Shown here in pieces: positions 885-38,861 of a DNA stretch of 39,491 nucleotides (positions are counted from its first letter, which is position 1; each line of letters starts with the position of its first letter). The stretch lies in UHGV virus genome UHGV-0344222. One strand, 5' to 3'. Position numbers and translations under genes: made by a program. The notes beneath the pieces were generated by a model that was not told the DNA's origin, made no database searches, and worked only from the letters and a program-made list of their open reading frames with translations. The DNA comes from a virus.

Positions 885-1085
885 AACGCGGCACTCCGGG
901 TTGAGAGAGGATGTCGGCCAGCTTTTTCCAGCCAGTGCGTAACTTGCGTGTGATGCGATCGAGAAGTGATTCAGAGCAGCCCACAACAGGCCACCCTGCA
1001 AAAGCGAACTGTTGCATGGTGTTATCCTTGGTTAATTGGCATAGCGAAAAGGCCGCGCTAATAAGCAGCCTTGTTGATATGCAGG

Positions 1086-1110
1086 CGAAAAAAAGCCCTC
1101 CGTAGAGGGC
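1086..1110 (-). terminator. Rho-independent terminator candidate in the early-left operon
   Basis: GCCCTC-CGTA-GAGGGC hairpin (1095-1110) followed on the minus strand by a 7-T run (plus-strand A-run 1088-1094). Confidence 0.55.
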
Positions 1111-1223
1111 GAACAGACAACAAGGGTTATTTCTCCATTTAACCAGAACAGGTCTTCGTCTCCTGTCTTGGTTATGATGCGGATTGCATCAGATAACCGA
1201 CTCTATGAATCGGCTATCGGCTG

Positions 1224-1469
1224 CTATTCAGCACTTTCAGCGAAGTCCTCGATTAGCTCATCCAGGCAATCGTCAGTCATGGCATCCATTCCCTGTGCTC
1301 GCTGCATGACTTCAATCGCATCGTCTGGTGAGAGGTCAACTGCAACCAGAAACTCAGCAACGGCAAGCTTTGCAACGTAATATTCATTCTCCTGCATGCA
1401 CTGGCTGAACACTGCGCTTACTGCACTTGTTAACCTGATCATCAGGTCATTGTTATCGCAACCTTCCAT
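1224..1469 (-). CDS. Strongly acidic 81-aa hypothetical protein
   Basis: ORF MEGCDNND...DDCLDELIEDFAESAE; 19 Asp/Glu versus 3 Arg/Lys by my count; ATG immediately follows the upstream stop. Confidence 0.5.
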   Translation of the reverse strand: MEGCDNNDLMIRLTSAVSAVFSQCMQENEYYVAKLAVAEFLVAVDLSPDDAIEVMQRAQGMDAMTDDCLDELIEDFAESAE

Positions 1470-1631
1470 TCACTCCTCCTCGCCGATGGCTTTAGCTTGC
1501 GAGCATTCATCATCAATGTCATAAATGTCGTGATAGCATTCGTGGCACAGCTCTTCATTGCCATCGCCACTGTAAACGGCAACCGCAGCAACCCCTTTGC
1601 CGCATACGTCGCATTCGACTTCCTCATCCAT
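1470..1631 (-). CDS. 53-aa CxxC...CxxC zinc-ribbon-like small protein (below the ORF-track cutoff)
   Basis: Manual translation of the minus strand: MDEEVECDVCGKGVAAVAVYSGDGNEELCHECYHDIYDIDDECSQAKAIGEEE; stop directly abuts the next ATG. Confidence 0.4.
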   Translation of the reverse strand: MDEEVECDVCGKGVAAVAVYSGDGNEELCHECYHDIYDIDDECSQAKAIGEEE

Positions 1632-1673
1632 ATCTCATCTCAGATAAGTGGCTTGCCCAAAAAGAAAGGCCGA

Positions 1674-1868
1674 CTATGCGGCCTTTAGTTTTTCCAGTTC
1701 TCTTTCAATCATTGCGGTGGTTCTTATTGCCCATTTATCGACATATTTCCCATCCTCCATTACAAGAAACATTTCATCAGGCTTAATCATGCATTCCGAT
1801 TGAAGCTGGCATCCATTGCATCGTTTGAATTGTCCACACCATTGATTTTTATCAATAGTCGTAGTCAT
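1674..1868 (-). CDS. ral: Ral restriction-alleviation protein
   Basis: MTTTIDKNQWCGQFKRCNGC... matches lambda Ral as I recall it; position between N/sieB and the early-left genes. Confidence 0.85.
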   Translation of the reverse strand: MTTTIDKNQWCGQFKRCNGCQLQSECMIKPDEMFLVMEDGKYVDKWAIRTTAMIERELEKLKAA

Positions 1869-2062
1869 ACGGATAGTCCTGGTACTGTTCCATTACATCC
1901 TGCGGATGCTCTTCGAACTCTTCAAATTCTTCTTCCATATATCACCTTAAATAGTGGATTGCGGTAGTAAAGATTGTGCCTGTCTTTTAACCACATCAGG
2001 CTCGGTGGTTCTCGTGTACCCCTACAGCGAGAAATCGGATAAACTATTACAACCCCTACAGT

Positions 2063-2617
2063 TTGATGAGTATAGAAATGGATCCACTCGTTATTCTCGG
2101 ACGAGTGTTCAGTAATGAACCTCTGGAGAGAACCATGTATATGATCGTTATCTGGGTTGGACTTCTGCTTTTAAGCCCAGATAACTGGCCTGAATATGTT
2201 AATGAGAGAATCGGTATTCCTCATGTGTGGCATGTTTTCGTCTTTGCTCTTGCATTTTCGCTAGCAATTAATGTGCATCGATTATCAGCTATTGCCAGCG
2301 CCAGATATAAGCGATTTAAGCTAAGAAAACGCATTAAGATGCAAAACGATAAAGTGCGATCAGTAATTCAAAACCTTACAGAAGAGCAATCTATGGTTTT
2401 GTGCGCAGCCCTTAATGAAGGCAGGAAGTATGTGGTTACATCAAAACAATTCCCATACATTAGTGAGTTGATTGAGCTTGGTGTGTTGAACAAAACTTTT
2501 TCCCGATGGAACGGGAAGCATATATTATTCCCTATTGAGGATATTTACTGGACTGAATTAGTTGCCAGCTATGATCCATATAATATTGAGATAAAGCCAA
2601 GGCCAATATCTAAGTAA
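2063..2617 (+). CDS. sieB: SieB superinfection-exclusion (abortive infection) membrane protein
   Basis: 184-aa ORF with hydrophobic N-terminal segments, convergent with and abutting N, as sieB is in lambda. Confidence 0.65.
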   Translation: MMSIEMDPLVILGRVFSNEPLERTMYMIVIWVGLLLLSPDNWPEYVNERIGIPHVWHVFVFALAFSLAINVHRLSAIASARYKRFKLRKRIKMQNDKVRSVIQNLTEEQSMVLCAALNEGRKYVVTSKQFPYISELIELGVLNKTFSRWNGKHILFPIEDIYWTELVASYDPYNIEIKPRPISK

Positions 2618-2941
2618 CTAGGTAAGAGGAATCGATTTTCCCTTAATTTTCTGGCGTCCACTGCATGTTATGCCGCGTTCGCCAGGCTTGCTGTACCATG
2701 TGCGCTGATTCTTGCGCTCAATACGTTGCAGGTTGCTTTCAATCTGTTTGTGGTATTCAGCCAGCACTGTAAGGTCTATCGGATTTAGTGCGCTTTCTAC
2801 TCGTGATTTCGGTTTGCGATTCAGCGAGAGAATAGGGCGGTTAACTGGTTTTGCGCTTACCCCAACCAACAGGGGATTTGCTGCTTTCCATTGAGCCTGT
2901 TTCTCTGCGCGACGTTCGCGGCGGCGTGTTTGTGCATCCAT
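2618..2941 (-). CDS. N: Antitermination protein N
   Basis: From the ATG at 2941 the protein reads MDAQTRRRERRAEKQAQWKAANPLLVGVSAKPVNRPILS..., matching lambda N (107 aa); the ORF track extends further upstream. Confidence 0.92.
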   Translation of the reverse strand: MDAQTRRRERRAEKQAQWKAANPLLVGVSAKPVNRPILSLNRKPKSRVESALNPIDLTVLAEYHKQIESNLQRIERKNQRTWYSKPGERGITCSGRQKIKGKSIPLT

Positions 2942-3051
2942 CTGGATTCTCCTGCCAGTTAGCTTTGAGTAACGCGCCGTGATGCTTATCTCCACGGTTG
3001 CTGTCTTGCAGCTGCATTTCGCGCTACTCAAAGCCTTCTGCTTTGAATGCT

Positions 3052-3083
3052 GCCCTTCTTCAGGGCTAAATTTTTAAGAGCGT
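3052..3083 (-). promoter_or_regulatory. nutL (boxA CGCTCTTA and boxB GCCCTGAAGAAGGGC on the minus strand)
   Basis: Reverse complement of 3052-3083 gives boxA/boxB upstream of N. Confidence 0.8.
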
Positions 3084-3121
3084 CACCTTCATGGTGGTCA
3101 GTGCGTCCTGCTGATGTGCTT

Positions 3122-3185
3122 AGTATCACCGCTAGTGGTATTTATGTCAACACCGCCAGAGATAATTTATCACCGCAGATGGTTA
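3122..3185 (-). promoter_or_regulatory. pL promoter with operators OL1 (3124-3140), OL2 (3148-3164), OL3 (3169-3185)
   Basis: 17-bp operators recognisable; -35 TTGACA (rc of 3145-3150) and -10 GATACT (rc of 3122-3127). OL1 has one substitution versus reference lambda. Confidence 0.85.
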
Positions 3186-3340
3186 TCTGTATGTTTTTTA
3201 TATAGATTTATTTTTTGCAGGGTTGTGTGGATTGGGAAGGTGATCGAGAGATCTGAATTGCGATGTTTAGTGAGTTGTATCTATTAATTTCCAAATAAAT
3301 ACAATTGGTTATGTGTTCTTGGGTGAGGGGGATCGTGAGG

Positions 3341-3367
3341 CAAAGAAAACCCGGCTCTGTGGCCGGG
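3341..3367 (-). terminator. Rho-independent terminator downstream of the cI operon (t-imm-like)
   Basis: CCCGGC-TCTGTG-GCCGGG hairpin followed on the minus strand by a T-rich run, directly after the stop of the 3376..4137 gene. Confidence 0.6.
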
Positions 3368-3375
3368 AATAACAT

Positions 3376-4137
3376 TTAGGAATCAAGGTCAGGTAGCATG
3401 ATTTTCTCAATCAACGTCAATGCCCTTTGGTCTCGTTCAGCAAAATATTTAGGAGCGTACTGAGGCAGCCACACTTCGTTGAAGTGTTGTTTGAAATCTG
3501 CAAGATATTCGTTTGGGTATAGACGTACCGGGAATGTCCGGCCATCTGGGTACTCATGGTTATATGTTGGGAATGTCTTCGGCTCAACCCCCCGGTTGTC
3601 ACGGAGCCATTGCGAGAAAACCCTACCCTCTGAAATATCAGGGACCATTTTTTCTGGCAGCGTATATCCGGCCTGTTCAAGTGGCGCAACCAAGTTAAAC
3701 GTCAGTTCATTAAGCATAGAAAAGTGCGTATGAGGAACTCTGCCTCGGTTTGTCATATACCGCTTAAGGTGGATAGGGAGTTCGGCAGGCGCTCTTTCAC
3801 CTGACATCCACTCACGCACCCATCTCGATACTTGCACTGCAAATTTTGGAGATAGCCACTGAGCTAAATTAATTGCGATGTCTGGATGAACCCAAGTCCC
3901 TTGATTCTCTGCTCTTCCGCCTTTAAATGATTGAATTAACTCCGATATGGGAATCCCCATATCGCGTGATAATTCATCAAAAAAATCTTGTGTTGTTTTT
4001 AGTCGTGTATAGTCAGCAAGTAGCTTCCCCGCAGACTTGCACATCGCGGTGGCATTGATGTATCCGTCTTTGGTGCGAAGATGGATGACTTCTCCATCAA
4101 CTTCTCTAGCGATTAATGCAAGTTGAAACTGTGTCAT
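3376..4137 (-). CDS. KilA-N domain protein at the rexAB-equivalent locus (BstA-like abortive-infection candidate)
   Basis: 253 aa; N-terminal KilA-N-type motifs (DGYINAT..., GTWVHPDIAINLAQWLSPKFAVQVSRWV); starts 31 bp after the cI stop, same strand, ends at the t-imm-like terminator. Confidence 0.75.
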   Translation of the reverse strand: MTQFQLALIAREVDGEVIHLRTKDGYINATAMCKSAGKLLADYTRLKTTQDFFDELSRDMGIPISELIQSFKGGRAENQGTWVHPDIAINLAQWLSPKFAVQVSRWVREWMSGERAPAELPIHLKRYMTNRGRVPHTHFSMLNELTFNLVAPLEQAGYTLPEKMVPDISEGRVFSQWLRDNRGVEPKTFPTYNHEYPDGRTFPVRLYPNEYLADFKQHFNEVWLPQYAPKYFAERDQRALTLIEKIMLPDLDS

Positions 4138-4168
4138 AAATCATCCTATTACGTGAAAAATAAAACAA

Positions 4169-4885
<717 letters not shown>

Positions 4886-8026: not shown

Positions 8027-8550
8027 CTATCAAATCAAATACGCCAGCACACGACAAGGACTGCTGGCAAACGCCGCTTTGGCTTTTTGATGCACTGGAT
8101 ATTGAGTTTGGATTCTGGCTGGATTCGGCAGCGAGCGACAAAAATGCTCTGTGTGCTCACTGGCTAACTGAGGCCGACGACGCGCTCAATTCTGAGTGGG
8201 TAAGCCACGGTGCAATCTGGAATAACCCACCGTACAGCAATATCAGGCCGTGGGTGGAAAAAGCCGCTGAGCAGTGCAGACAACAGCGACAGACGGTAGT
8301 TATGCTTGTGCCAGAGGATATGTCAGTCGGATGGTTCAGCAAGGCTCTGGAGAGTGTCGACGAAGTTCGCATTATCACTGATGGACGGATTAATTTTATC
8401 GAACCATCGACAGGGCTGGAGAAGAAGGGAAACAGCAAAGGCTCCATGCTGCTGATTTGGCGACCGTTCATCAGTCCTCGACGGATGTTTACTACCGTAT
8501 CCAAAGCGGCATTGATGGCGATCGGGCAGGGCGTCAGGAGGGCGGCATGA
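8023..8550 (+). CDS. Phage-type DNA N6-adenine methyltransferase (orphan, no cognate nuclease seen)
   Basis: NPPY catalytic motif ([13 protein letters not shown]); ATGA overlap with the ninB stop; occupies the ninC/ninD position. Confidence 0.8.
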
Positions 8551-8723
8551 GGCGACAGCGACGAAGTTTCACCGACATCATCTGCGAAAACTGCAAATAC
8601 CTTCCAACGAAACGCTCCAGAAATAAACGCAAGCCAATCCCAAAAGAATCTGACGTAAAAACCTTCAATTACACAGCTCACCTGTGGGATATCCGGTGGC
8701 TAAGATATCGTGCGAGGAAATGA
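8547..8723 (+). CDS. ninE: NinE
   Basis: [58 protein letters not shown]; ATGA overlap with the methyltransferase stop. Confidence 0.85.
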
Positions 8724-8725
8724 CA

Positions 8726-9067
8726 ATGGATTATTCACAGTTAAGTGATTTTGAAATTAACAGAATGGTAGGAGACATAATTTTTAAAGGCCTTTGGGCA
8801 AGTAAACCGGAAACATCAGGGAATAACACCAACAAATGGTATTACGGAAATGCTGATACAACTTTTGAGCCATTAAATCATTTGCCTGACTACTGCAATG
8901 ATCCGAGCGCTTCATGGCCGATTATTGAGAAATACAGGATTTCTATCTTAGACCAGTTAACTGAATGGTGTGTGGATGCAAAAGGCGTAAGCCCAATATT
9001 TGATACCAGACCTCTCCGCGCCGCCATGATTGTCTTTCTCCTGATGCAGGAGGCCAATAATGCTTAG
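8726..9067 (+). CDS. Hypothetical nin-region protein (113 aa; alternative ATG at 8720)
   Basis: ORF with GAGG 7 nt upstream of the ATG at 8726; not a lambda nin gene that I recognise. Confidence 0.5.
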
Positions 9068-9276
9068 CCCATCTCAATCCCTTCAATACCTGAAAGGAAG
9101 CATAGAGCGGGCTTCAATGTGCACAGAGTGGATTCTATCTAGGTTTAGCGCATACAGAAGATTGCCGGTAAAGGGCATGCCAAGCAAGTCGATGCTGCAT
9201 ATGCAAAAGAATGCGCGCTGGAAGGTATGGCGAGAACACAGGTTATCTGGCTGAAAGAGGGGGTTATTAAGGCGTG
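9060..9276 (+). pseudogene. ninF N-terminus fused out of frame to a ybcO-like C-terminus (mosaic junction remnant)
   Basis: First about 19 codons match NinF as I recall it ([10 protein letters not shown]...ERA); a different frame (9149-9277) encodes ...[25 protein letters not shown], the YbcO C-terminus; GTGA overlap with rusA. Confidence 0.5.
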
Positions 9277-9636
9277 AATACCTACAGCATCGCATTACCC
9301 TGGCCTCCGAGCAATAACCGCTACTACCGGCATAATCGCGGGCGCACGCACATCAGCGCAGAAGGGCAGGCATACCGCGATAACGTCGCTCGAATCATTA
9401 AAAACGCAATGCTGGATATCGGCCTGGCTATGCCTGTGAAAATCCGCATTGAGTGCCACATGCCGGATCGCCGTCGCCGTGACCTGGATAATCTGCAAAA
9501 AGCCGCTTTTGACGCACTCACTAAAGCAGGTTTCTGGCTGGATGATGCTCAGGTCGTTGATTACCGCGTTGTGAAGATGCCTGTTACCAAAGGTGGGAGG
9601 CTGGAACTGACCATCACCGAAATGGGGAATGAATGA
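9274..9636 (+). CDS. rusA: RusA Holliday-junction resolvase
   Basis: 120 aa, GTG start; matches DLP12 RusA as I recall it. Confidence 0.93.
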
Positions 9637-9773
9637 TGTTTGAGTTTAATATGGCAGAACTTCTTCGCCACCGCTGGGGGCGTCTGCGCTTATATCGTTT
9701 CCCCGGTTCTGTTTTGACCGATTACCGAATACTGAAGAATTACGCCAAAACACTGACAGGAGCAGGAGTATGA
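9633..9773 (+). CDS. ylcG: YlcG-like small protein (46 aa)
   Basis: Manual translation [46 protein letters not shown]; ATGA overlap with the rusA stop. Confidence 0.6.
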
Positions 9774-9858
9774 AGTCAGAGATAACAATCAACTAATACT
9801 GTTTTGTTGATTTTTGCTTGTAATTGGCGTTCTGGTCTGAGTTTTGTGGAGTAAGTTG

Positions 9859-10242
9859 ATGCGTGATATTCAGATGGTTCTTGAGCGTTGGGGAGCGTGG
9901 GCGGCTAATAATCATGAAGATGTGACCTGGTCGTCCATTGCCGCCGGTTTTAAGGGATTAATTACTTCAAAAGTAAAATCTCGCCCGCAATGTTGTGACG
10001 ATGACGCGATGATCATTTGCGGGTGCATGGCCCGTCTGAAAAAGAACAACAGCGATTTGCACGATTTATTAGTAGATTATTATGTAGTCGGTATGACATT
10101 CATGTCACTGGCAGGTAAGCATTGCTGCTCTGATGGTTATATCGGGAAAAGGTTACAGAAGGCTGAGGGCATAATTGAAGGGATGTTAATGGCATTAGAT
10201 ATCCGGTTAGAGATGGATATCGTTGTTAATAACTCTAATTAA
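9859..10242 (+). CDS. quuD: Late-gene antiterminator Q (QuuD / phage-82 type)
   Basis: [34 protein letters not shown]... 127 aa. Confidence 0.88.
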
Positions 10243-10269
10243 TACGCCAATTATTTACTAAAAGTTATT

Positions 10270-10415
10270 AAAAATGGGGCGTTGAAACGCCCCCAAAAAT
10301 AAAGGGTAATATATAACAGAAGGTTTGTATAGTTAGAAGCAAGGTTGTGCTTCTAAAGGAAGTGGCTTGAGGGAGCCACTTATATGTTGGGGAGGCAAAG
10401 CCTCCCACAACATAT
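10270..10415. other. Cluster of four stem-loops between Q and the porin gene (candidate pR'/tR' region and nmpC terminator)
   Basis: Hairpins at about 10275-10293 (GGGGCGTT/AACGCCCC), 10333-10354, 10363-10382 and 10385-10412. Confidence 0.5.
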
Positions 10416-10430
10416 CTTTTAGTAATCAAA

Positions 10431-11513
10431 TTAGAACTGGTAAACCATACCTACAGCAACGATATCATCGGTAGCAACGCCAGATGCTTTCGTGAAATCG
10501 CTCTTATCAATCAGGTTGATTTTGTAGTCAACAAAAGTGGACATATTTTTGTTGAAGTAATAGGTTGCACCTACATCAACATATTCAACCAGGTCCTGAT
10601 CACCCCAAACACCCAAGTCTTTTCCTTTAGAATGCAGGTAAGCAACGGATGGACGCAGGCCGAAGTCGAACTGATATTGTGCAACAGCTTCGAAGTTTTG
10701 TGCTTTGTTGGCAATATGGTTATTACCAAAAACAGTCATGTTCTGGGTTTCAGAATAGGTGGTGGCCAGATAGATGTTGTTCGCATCATATTTCAGACCA
10801 GCTGCCCATACTTCAGCATTTTGACCAGAAGCATTCAGACCGTTGTTACCGTAGATAACCTGATTATTAGTGCGATCAGATTTAGCATAGGTTGCACCCA
10901 CGCCGAATCCTTCATACTCATAAGTAGTTGAGAAACCGAAACCATCGCCATTAGCTTCAGTTACTTCATTTCGGTCATTTTTGCCCTGATACTGAGCTGC
11001 AAAGTTCAGGCCATCAACCAGACCAAAGAAGTCGTTGTTACGATAAGTTGCAACACCTGTGGTGCGACCAGTCATGAATACATCTGTTTGGGTCCAGGTA
11101 TCGCCACCGAATTCTGGCAGAACGTCAGTCCACGCACCGATGTCGTATGCTACACCGTAGTTACGGCCGTAATCGATTGAGCCGTAGTCACCGAATTTCA
11201 GGCCTGCAAATGCAAGACGGGTTTTGTCTTTGGAGGAACCTTGAGATTCAGCGCGGTTGCCTTTGAATTCATATTCCCACTGACCGAAACCAGTCAGTTG
11301 ATCGTTGATTTGGGTTTCACCTTTGAAGCCAAGACGGGCATAAGTAGTATCACCATCATCTGCATCATTAGAGGAGAAGTAGTGCTTAGCATTAACTTTC
11401 CCGTACAGATCCAGCTTGTTACTGTCTTTATTATAAATTTCAGCTGCCTGAGCAGACATCGCCATCAGTACTGATGCAGCTACAGCAGAAATTGCCACTG
11501 TTAATTTTTTCAT
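10431..11513 (-). CDS. nmpC: Outer-membrane porin (OmpC/NmpC family), apparently intact
   Basis: 360 aa with signal peptide [23 protein letters not shown] and C-terminal ...MVYQF. Confidence 0.92.
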
Positions 11514-37900: not shown

Positions 37901-38286
37901 AAACCACATCGTCGTTTGATTACGGCACTAAATCCACGAATAACACTGGTGCGCATACCCATAGTGTTAGCGGTACGGCTGCTTCAGCCGGTGCACATAC
38001 CCATTCGATGACATTTGTTTCAGGTGGTTCCAGTGGTGCTCCGGGAAGTGGAGCATCTGATTATTCTAAATACAGTGTTAACACTTCTTCTGCAGGCGCT
38101 CATACGCACTCTGTATCGGGTACTGCTGCAAGCGCAGGTGCACACGCGCATACTGTCGGTATTGGTGCTCATACGCACTCCGTTGCGATTGGCTCACATG
38201 GACACACCATCACCGTTAACGCTGCTGGTAACGCGGAAAACACCGTCAAAAATATCGCATTTAACTATATTGTGAGGCTTGCATAA
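34933..38286 (+). CDS. stf: Side tail fiber protein Stf (1117 aa) with long Ala/Ser-rich repeat region and His-rich C-terminal repeats
   Basis: N-terminus [26 protein letters not shown]... lambda Stf-like; repeats SAxxAxxSASSA... and [17 protein letters not shown] (twice). Confidence 0.92.
35300..36300 (+). repeat. Intragenic low-complexity tandem repeats (Ala/Ser/Thr-rich) within stf
   Basis: Reiterated GCx-AGC/TCx codon blocks; explains the long spurious ORFs on other frames and the antisense strand. Confidence 0.7.
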
Positions 38287-38861
38287 TGGCATTCAGAATG
38301 AGTGAACAAGCACGGACCATAAAAATTTATAATCTGCTGGCCGGAACTAATGAATTTATTGGTAAAGGTGACGCATATATTCCGCCTCATACAGGTCTGC
38401 CAGCAAACAGTACCGATATTGCACCGCCAGATATTCCGGCTGGCTTTGTGGCTGTTTTCAACAGTGATGAGGCATCGTGGCATCTCGTTGAAGATCATCG
38501 GGGAAAAACCGTCTATGACGTGGCTTCCGGCGACGCGTTATTTATTTCTGAACTTGGCTCGTTACCGGAAAATGTCACCTGGTTATCGCCGGAAGGGGAA
38601 TATCAGAAGTGGAACGGCACAGCCTGGGTGAAGGATACGGAAGCAGAAAAACTGTTCCGGATCCGGGAGGCGGAAGAAACAAAAAACAGCCTGATGCAGG
38701 TAGCCAGTGAGCATATAGCGCCACTTCAGGATGCTGTAGATCTGGAAATTGCAACGGAGGAAGAAATCTCGTTGCTGGAAGCATGGAAAAAGTATCGGGT
38801 ATTGCTGAACCGTGTTGATACGTCAACTTCACAGGATATTGAATGGCCAGCACTGCCGTAG
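38286..38861 (+). CDS. tfa: Tail fiber assembly protein Tfa
   Basis: 191 aa [48 protein letters not shown]... Confidence 0.93.

Follow-up and report, generated by a model that had tools for sequence, protein, structure and literature searches.

Three-part recombination scar, probably non-functional, in the nin region of a lambda-like E. coli prophage

Results

Gene order and the ninF-type start

The window, that is, the whole stretch of viral DNA analysed in the present study (39,491 nt, UHGV virus genome UHGV-0344222), contains ninE at 8547-8723 (from the ORF list and the sequence), followed downstream by an intact ninX (8726-9067), which was recognised by Pfam (Phage_P22_NinX, 8e-17), by the PGAP annotation of the corresponding locus of RM14721 and by its arrangement as in ST64T. 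Like ninX, the features discussed from here to rusA are on the plus strand. The ninX stop overlaps a ninF-type ATG by 8 nt (ATGCTTAG), as in P22-like phages, and a ninF-type Shine-Dalgarno sequence (AGGAGG) stands at about 9047-9052, 7 nt 5' of this ATG. The ORF that starts here (64 aa, 9060-9254, in the ORF list) is chimeric: it runs from the ninF start through a segment of different origin, here called X, into a ybcO fragment read in the wrong frame, and stops at 9252-9254, 19 nt before the GTG start of rusA. The latter (9274-9636; Pfam RusA 6e-23, and PGAP) is an intact Holliday-junction resolvase gene and the first functional gene of a right-hand DLP12-type module (rusA-ylcG-quuD-porin), in which it is followed by ylcG, quuD and a minus-strand porin gene. 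As in DLP12, this porin gene (OmpC/NmpC-like, 360 aa, 10431-11513) separates the Q-type antiterminator gene quuD from the lysis genes. A full-length IS009 (RF02111, 38629-38827, plus strand, 221 bits), the sole Rfam match at gathering level in the window, falls within a 191-aa ORF (38286-38861) located at the tail-fibre end of the prophage.

DNA identity, amino acid identity and three-way alignment all place a P22/ST64T-type ninF 5' fragment of 21 codons at 9060-9122. Positions 9000-9122 are identical to the ninX-ninF region of ST64T at 114 of 123 nt (93%, E=1e-49), and in BLASTP the chimeric protein shares 16 of residues 1-22 with the P22-type NinF of ST64T (E=2e-9) and shows no similarity beyond them; the right end of the fragment can be placed only to within about 10 nt (9122-9132). 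A ninF-type start that overlaps the upstream gene and a homologous N-terminus are both present in the 64-aa ORF. The zinc ribbon of NinF (CxxC-x(12-13)-CxxCC, Pfam PF05810) was not found in it, hmmscan returning 0 families for the ORF while ST64T NinF, as a control, matched PF05810 at 6e-14. The whole Pfam NinF model spans NinF residues 20-44, the CxxC...CxxCC zinc-ribbon core, which is exactly the part absent here, and in all 36 ninF codons are absent from the scar. In one IMG/VR contig, the ninF 5' fragment contains TCCCTTCAA three times in tandem and in frame.

The ybcO fragment and its overlap with rusA

The right-hand part of the scar is the 3' end of ybcO (DUF1364, PF07102), namely its last 29 codons and TGA (9188-9277), in a frame (9188 mod 3 = 2) other than that of the ninF-type ORF (9060 mod 3 = 0). 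Positions 9188-9300 match the ybcO-rusA region of O157 at 112 of 113 nt (E=5e-55) and that of DLP12 at 109 of 113 (E=3e-51). The TGA in the ybcO frame (9275-9277) overlaps the rusA GTG (9274-9276) as GTGA, and the ribosome-binding region of rusA, GAGGGGG, lies inside the fragment at 9256-9262.

A full-length YbcO was not found: the Pfam alignment covers only profile positions 62-92 of 92 and scores 18.2 bits against a gathering cutoff of 29.9, with the YbcO of DLP12 reaching 144.8 bits over positions 2-92 as a control. No start-bearing ORF of at least 20 aa that ends at 9277 is listed in the ybcO frame, which is interrupted by stops at about 9140-9148; of the 96 ybcO codons, the first 66 are missing together with the start codon. 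At the RM14721 locus, PGAP annotates the stretch corresponding to 9188-9277 as a pseudogene ('DUF1364 domain-containing protein, incomplete, missing N-terminus'). The ybcO tail has probably been retained because it carries the translation-initiation region of rusA.

Segment X between the two gene fragments

Segment X, 65 nt in length (9123-9187), has no homology to ninF or ybcO, and shows about 90% identity to the left edge of a ninF-interrupting insert of the type carried by phages AU6Stx1 and SH2026Stx1. Its identities to the two parents (12/55 to ninF and 13/55 to ybcO) are at the random level, compared with 50/55 to AU6. In the three-way alignment the identity blocks amount to 32/38, 50/55 and 21/21, with random-level identity outside them. 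The alignment of the window with AU6 spans 9094-9194 and that with ybcO begins at 9188; therefore, the crossover lies within the CGATG at 9190-9194, a microhomology common to the AU6-type continuation of X and to ybcO.

When 9105-9205 was compared with 50,697 phage records by sensitive blastn, X turned up, 100% identical throughout, in 27 phages with the complete scar and, at 89% identity, in the Stx1 phages AU6Stx1 and SH2026Stx1. Across phages, E. coli genomes, IMG/VR and GTDB species representatives it has only two genomic contexts, the window type and the AU6-type interrupted ninF. Specifically, an exact 35-mer of X occurs in one E. coli contig only among 185,579 GTDB species representatives, and an 18-mer recovered 118 IMG/VR contigs, all in one or the other context. 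By blastn, 250 of 5,426 complete E. coli genomes hold most of an AU6-type query, and partial matches to its X portion coincide, in window-type loci, with the DUF1364 pseudogene. No donor of X beyond these two contexts was found by blastn or tblastn against the 50,697 phage records, nor in the 5,426 E. coli genomes, GTDB and IMG/VR, and tblastn of the X-encoded peptide against the phage records gave no further context.

Other origins of X were considered and set aside. A scrambled 5' end of ybcO is suggested by a 14/16 match (GGGCATGCCAAGCAAG against ybcO codons 10-15), which has E=0.29 and flanks that align at the random level; it is also contradicted by the occurrence of X without any ybcO in AU6-type loci. 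A divergent ninF allele was rejected on the identity to ninF given above and the lack of cysteines. Finally, X together with the DNA to its right was compared with the 3' end of ydaT, after which the block to the right recurs in a Rac-like prophage, and no similarity was found.

The sequence-only reading of this locus had described an ORF that begins like ninF, diverges after about 19 codons and is joined to a ybcO 3' end, with the YbcO C-terminus continuing in another frame up to a GTGA overlap with rusA. The ninF-like start holds, extended to 21-22 residues, and the YbcO C-terminus and its overlap are as described. Both gene pieces are real, with similarities that far exceed what chance would give; their direct joining has to be given up, since the 65 nt of X lie between them. 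The comparison with related prophages that had been suggested for locating the breakpoint places the end of ninF at about 9122 (to 9132), the start of ybcO at 9188 and the crossover in CGATG. The supposed junction between a lambda-type and a DLP12-type nin region is indeed a mosaic with a DLP12/phage-82-type module, and its left partner is of the P22/ST64T type, not lambda proper.

The interrupted ninF of AU6-type loci

In AU6-type loci, a lambda-type ninF 5' end comes after ninE and leads into X, beyond which the DNA is different; about 2.8 kb of foreign sequence thus divides ninF in two (NC_049921.1, AU6Stx1, excerpt positions about 915-3725; also positions 1960-2300 of a separate excerpt). 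Here X runs about 30 nt further, to a GAGGA Shine-Dalgarno sequence and the ATG of a small membrane-protein ORF, beyond which lies AT-rich DNA with a 590-aa minus-strand orphan (no Pfam match), followed by a (TTTCTA)x6 repeat. The insert is bounded on its right by a ninF 3' remnant ('EEEGDG*'), with the ninG-like ATGGCTAAAC directly after it, and to the right of this remnant come an HNH-NinG-like gene, ninG, ninH, Q and stx1. This split ninF is carried by Stx1-converting phages and by about 250 complete E. coli genomes. Judged from these alignments, X is the left edge, or presumptive 5' leader, of the foreign insert in the AU6-type lineage. The frame running from ninF into X is decayed there (of 38 loci, 34 have TAA as their fourth codon and 15 have GTA in place of the start), and X was therefore not originally a coding sequence under selection.

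Several additional features of these loci were noted. The small membrane-protein (TM) ORF at the left of the insert (MKTSDFFTVLACGTGGALTGHFIVNIFTWYFFGFRDYFTRW..., positions 2104-2300 of the separate excerpt) is unannotated, and a homologue with 84% identity follows ydaT in a Rac-like prophage (E. coli 3-72, excerpt 3467-3685). In 37 of 38 AU6-type IMG/VR loci the ORF is frameshifted at a T-run (T6 not T7), which could represent decay or slippage-dependent expression. A further mosaic joint within a gene of this nin region is apparently present in the AU6Stx1 'HNH endonuclease' (excerpt 3712-4317), which is encoded directly upstream of a full ninG: its N-terminus resembles that of NinG (MAKPARRRC) and is fused to domains HNH_3 and AP2. 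Furthermore, one AU6-type IMG/VR contig contains an insertion at CTAG inside X, the end sequence of which we take to be that of IS5.

Distribution and annotation of the scar

A genome was counted as a carrier of the full scar when it covered at least 80% of window positions 8900-9400; by this measure, 575 of 5,426 complete E. coli genomes (about 10%) are carriers, among them ATCC 25922 with 98.2% identity. The scar is likewise found in 27 phage records that were submitted as complete genomes (ev207, ev243, ev017, 2G7b, mEp332, PhiR11_1, Lambda_2E9 and others), presumably of phages isolated as viable, and in about 80 IMG/VR contigs. The breakpoints are identical across the E. coli genomes, phage records and IMG/VR contigs, which means that the joint has been inherited by many genomes.

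The closest complete genome for the scar region is RM14721, with 99.8% identity over 8900-9400. Its collinearity with the window is confined to about 5.2-10.5 kb and 12-13 kb, and within the 10001-11000 bin (56% identity) the two fall out of ungapped register, at a point inside the porin gene or just upstream of it. The RM14721 prophage is truncated, being followed by trkG, IS1 and then the bio operon; beyond about 13300 the window apparently carries lambda-like head and tail genes, as judged by ORF sizes. The nin module with the scar thus moves between prophages whose backbones differ.

On at least 1000 contigs, and likewise in NCBI nr, UniRef and RefSeq phage records (e.g., ev207), the 64-aa ORF goes by the name 'protein ninF'; PGAP did not call this ORF at the RM14721 locus, where the overlapping ybcO pseudogene is annotated instead. 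The name is misleading, as the NinF domain is absent. A literature search found no paper mentioning ninF together with ybcO, and none describing the joint of ninF 5' end, X and ybcO.

Constraint on the scar

Among 46 window-type haplotypes, the 64-aa ORF has 2 polymorphic codons with synonymous changes only and 13 with amino-acid changes, against 46 and 30, respectively, in ninX and rusA together (Fisher p=0.0012 versus the scar, on small counts and with no phylogenetic correction). Read in the ybcO frame, the ybcO part has 2 synonymous-only and 7 amino-acid-changing codons; in these small counts, some of the scar variants may be recombination imports and not mutations in place. This pattern indicates constraint on the scar that is relaxed relative to the neighbouring genes.

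Discussion

We put at about 85% the probability that these three parts form a recombination scar without function in the nin region, a dispensable section of this lambda-like E. coli prophage. Homology ends abruptly at defined breakpoints and essential parts of both genes are absent, from which it is predicted that neither NinF (zinc ribbon lost) nor YbcO (N-terminal two thirds lost) can be made. The earlier suggestion of a non-functional remnant is in this respect well founded, being in line with the PGAP pseudogene call, the absent NinF domain and the polymorphism pattern. Its remark that the pieces are joined out of frame is correct as to the frames, which do differ, and has no consequence, as 36 ninF and 66 ybcO codons are simply absent. 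Such a scar is tolerated because the nin genes are non-essential, the nin5 deletion of lambda being viable.

The history that we propose would have run in three steps. To judge from related loci, an ancestral ninF would have been cut after about codon 21 by foreign DNA, a state that survives in AU6Stx1 and SH2026Stx1. An illegitimate crossover at the 5-nt CGATG, 65-72 nt into the foreign DNA, may then have connected X with the last 90 nt of ybcO; the joint is seen in the alignment, and the mechanism is what we infer from it. The ybcO partner would have been a DLP12/phage-82-type module that brought in rusA-ylcG-quuD-porin, at the cost of the remaining insert, the ninF 3' end and the first 66 ybcO codons. 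Finally, homologous exchange in the conserved ninF 5' core and its neighbours could have placed a P22-type ninX-ninF 5' end on the left. The joint itself would have arisen once and then spread widely. The third segment between the ninF and ybcO pieces points to at least two illegitimate events. No intermediates (a P22-type ninF 5' end with X and the full insert, or the insert followed by ybcO) were found in the collections searched. The order of events, and whether the second step was inter-phage recombination or an internal deletion, we infer from the sequences compared.

Could the chimeric ORF nevertheless be functional? It might encode a newborn small basic protein, or serve as a translation coupler, in which case ribosomes loaded at the ninF Shine-Dalgarno sequence would end at 9252-9254, right at that of rusA, and reinitiate, replacing the GTGA coupling of ybcO and rusA. 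Selection would then have held the frame open up to a stop near rusA; alternatively, a basic peptide that gained a function would amount to de novo gene birth at a mosaic joint. The strong AGGAGG 7 nt before the ATG, the overlap of this ATG with the ninX stop and the occurrence of the ORF on so many contigs speak for such a role. In addition, the frame is open in all 84 window-type loci read (one more has an in-frame 6-aa duplication), the position of the stop is conserved (TGA or TAA), and only about 7% of composition-matched shuffles have a frame open equally far. However, for one observation made after the fact, a probability of 7% is hardly persuasive, and with the low diversity about 0.7 nonsense mutations would be expected, so that their absence is not significant. 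Moreover, the excess of amino-acid-changing codons shows the peptide sequence to be unconstrained, no Pfam or NCBIfam family matches it, the cognate frame is broken in AU6-type loci, and rusA has its own GAGGGGG. On balance, we regard a function of the ORF, in either form, as unlikely.

The invariance of X, which has 1 polymorphic site in 65 among the 46 window-type haplotypes, with flanks 5-10 times more variable (7-17 variable sites per 100 nt), would be explained if X or the whole scar were an element acting in cis or as RNA, for instance a terminator, an sRNA or a regulatory leader. Such an element is very improbable, given that the RNA fold of the scar is no better than that of shuffles (z=0.27), that the scar holds neither promoter or terminator motifs (8400-9800 contains one weak site, inside ylcG) nor any Rfam match, and that X differs by about 12% between its two contexts with no evident compensatory pattern. 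For these reasons we do not ascribe the low diversity of X to selection; we attribute it to a recent single origin and to the lack of homologous alleles for exchange, which is the simpler account. The two recognisable pieces stand in frames related by a -1 shift, and this might suggest a sequencing or assembly artefact, a simple frameshift, or a programmed -1 frameshift yielding a NinF-YbcO fusion. The chance of any of these is negligible. The identical sequence recurs in hundreds of independent complete genomes and phage genomes, and the continuous frame on resequencing that would have spoken against a remnant was not seen in any of these independent assemblies; with so many codons of both genes absent, no indel restores either of them. 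As for programmed frameshifting, reading of the sequence from the last stop in the ybcO frame (9146-9148) to 9252 revealed no slippery heptamer of the form X_XXY_YYZ, and any fusion would be without all zinc-binding residues of both parents.

Taken as a non-functional mosaic remnant, the scar offers a clean, datable marker of exchange among P22/lambda-type left nin regions, Stx1-type interrupted ninF and DLP12/82-type rusA-Q modules. It also exposes an inconsistency of annotation, one and the same DNA stretch being 'protein ninF' in RefSeq phages and a ybcO-tail pseudogene in PGAP. Additionally, it marks ninF and ybcO as dispensable in phages deposited as complete genomes. What is added here is the three-part anatomy, with its link to the Stx1-phage insert, and the recognition of 'protein ninF' as a misnomer.

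Compared with its relatives, the scar ORF has the same start, Shine-Dalgarno sequence, overlap with the ninX stop and first 21 codons as NinF of P22/ST64T, whereas it lacks the zinc-ribbon core and the Pfam match that NinF of both P22/ST64T and lambda possess. It differs from lambda proper in that the lambda ninF comes after ninE and starts MIDQNRSYEQ, while the ninF piece of the window comes after ninX. With YbcO of DLP12 and phage 82 ('putative nuclease YbcO') it shares, at 96-99% DNA identity, the final 29 codons and the GTGA at which ybcO and rusA overlap; the start codon and the N-terminal two thirds are not part of the scar piece, which stays below the Pfam threshold. The interrupted ninF of AU6Stx1 and SH2026Stx1 has in common with the window the breakpoint from ninF to X and the sequence of X. 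In these phages, however, the ninF 5' end is lambda-type and decayed, and X goes on into the insert of about 2.8 kb, the ninF 3' end and the stx1 region, with no ybcO-rusA.

In a wider context, the scar is an ordinary example of lambdoid mosaicism and involves no new mechanism, its ybcO remnant being already flagged as a pseudogene in RefSeq. The 'novel joints' of lambdoid phages reportedly arise by illegitimate recombination followed by selection, in a model associated with Juhala and colleagues (2000) and with Hendrix, and most surviving mosaic joints sit at gene boundaries. The scar resembles these joints in its abrupt switch of homology, in the short microhomology at the crossover and in its location in the non-essential nin region. 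It differs from them in that the joint lies inside two genes, combines two gene fragments with a third, orphan fragment, and would have required at least two successive events.
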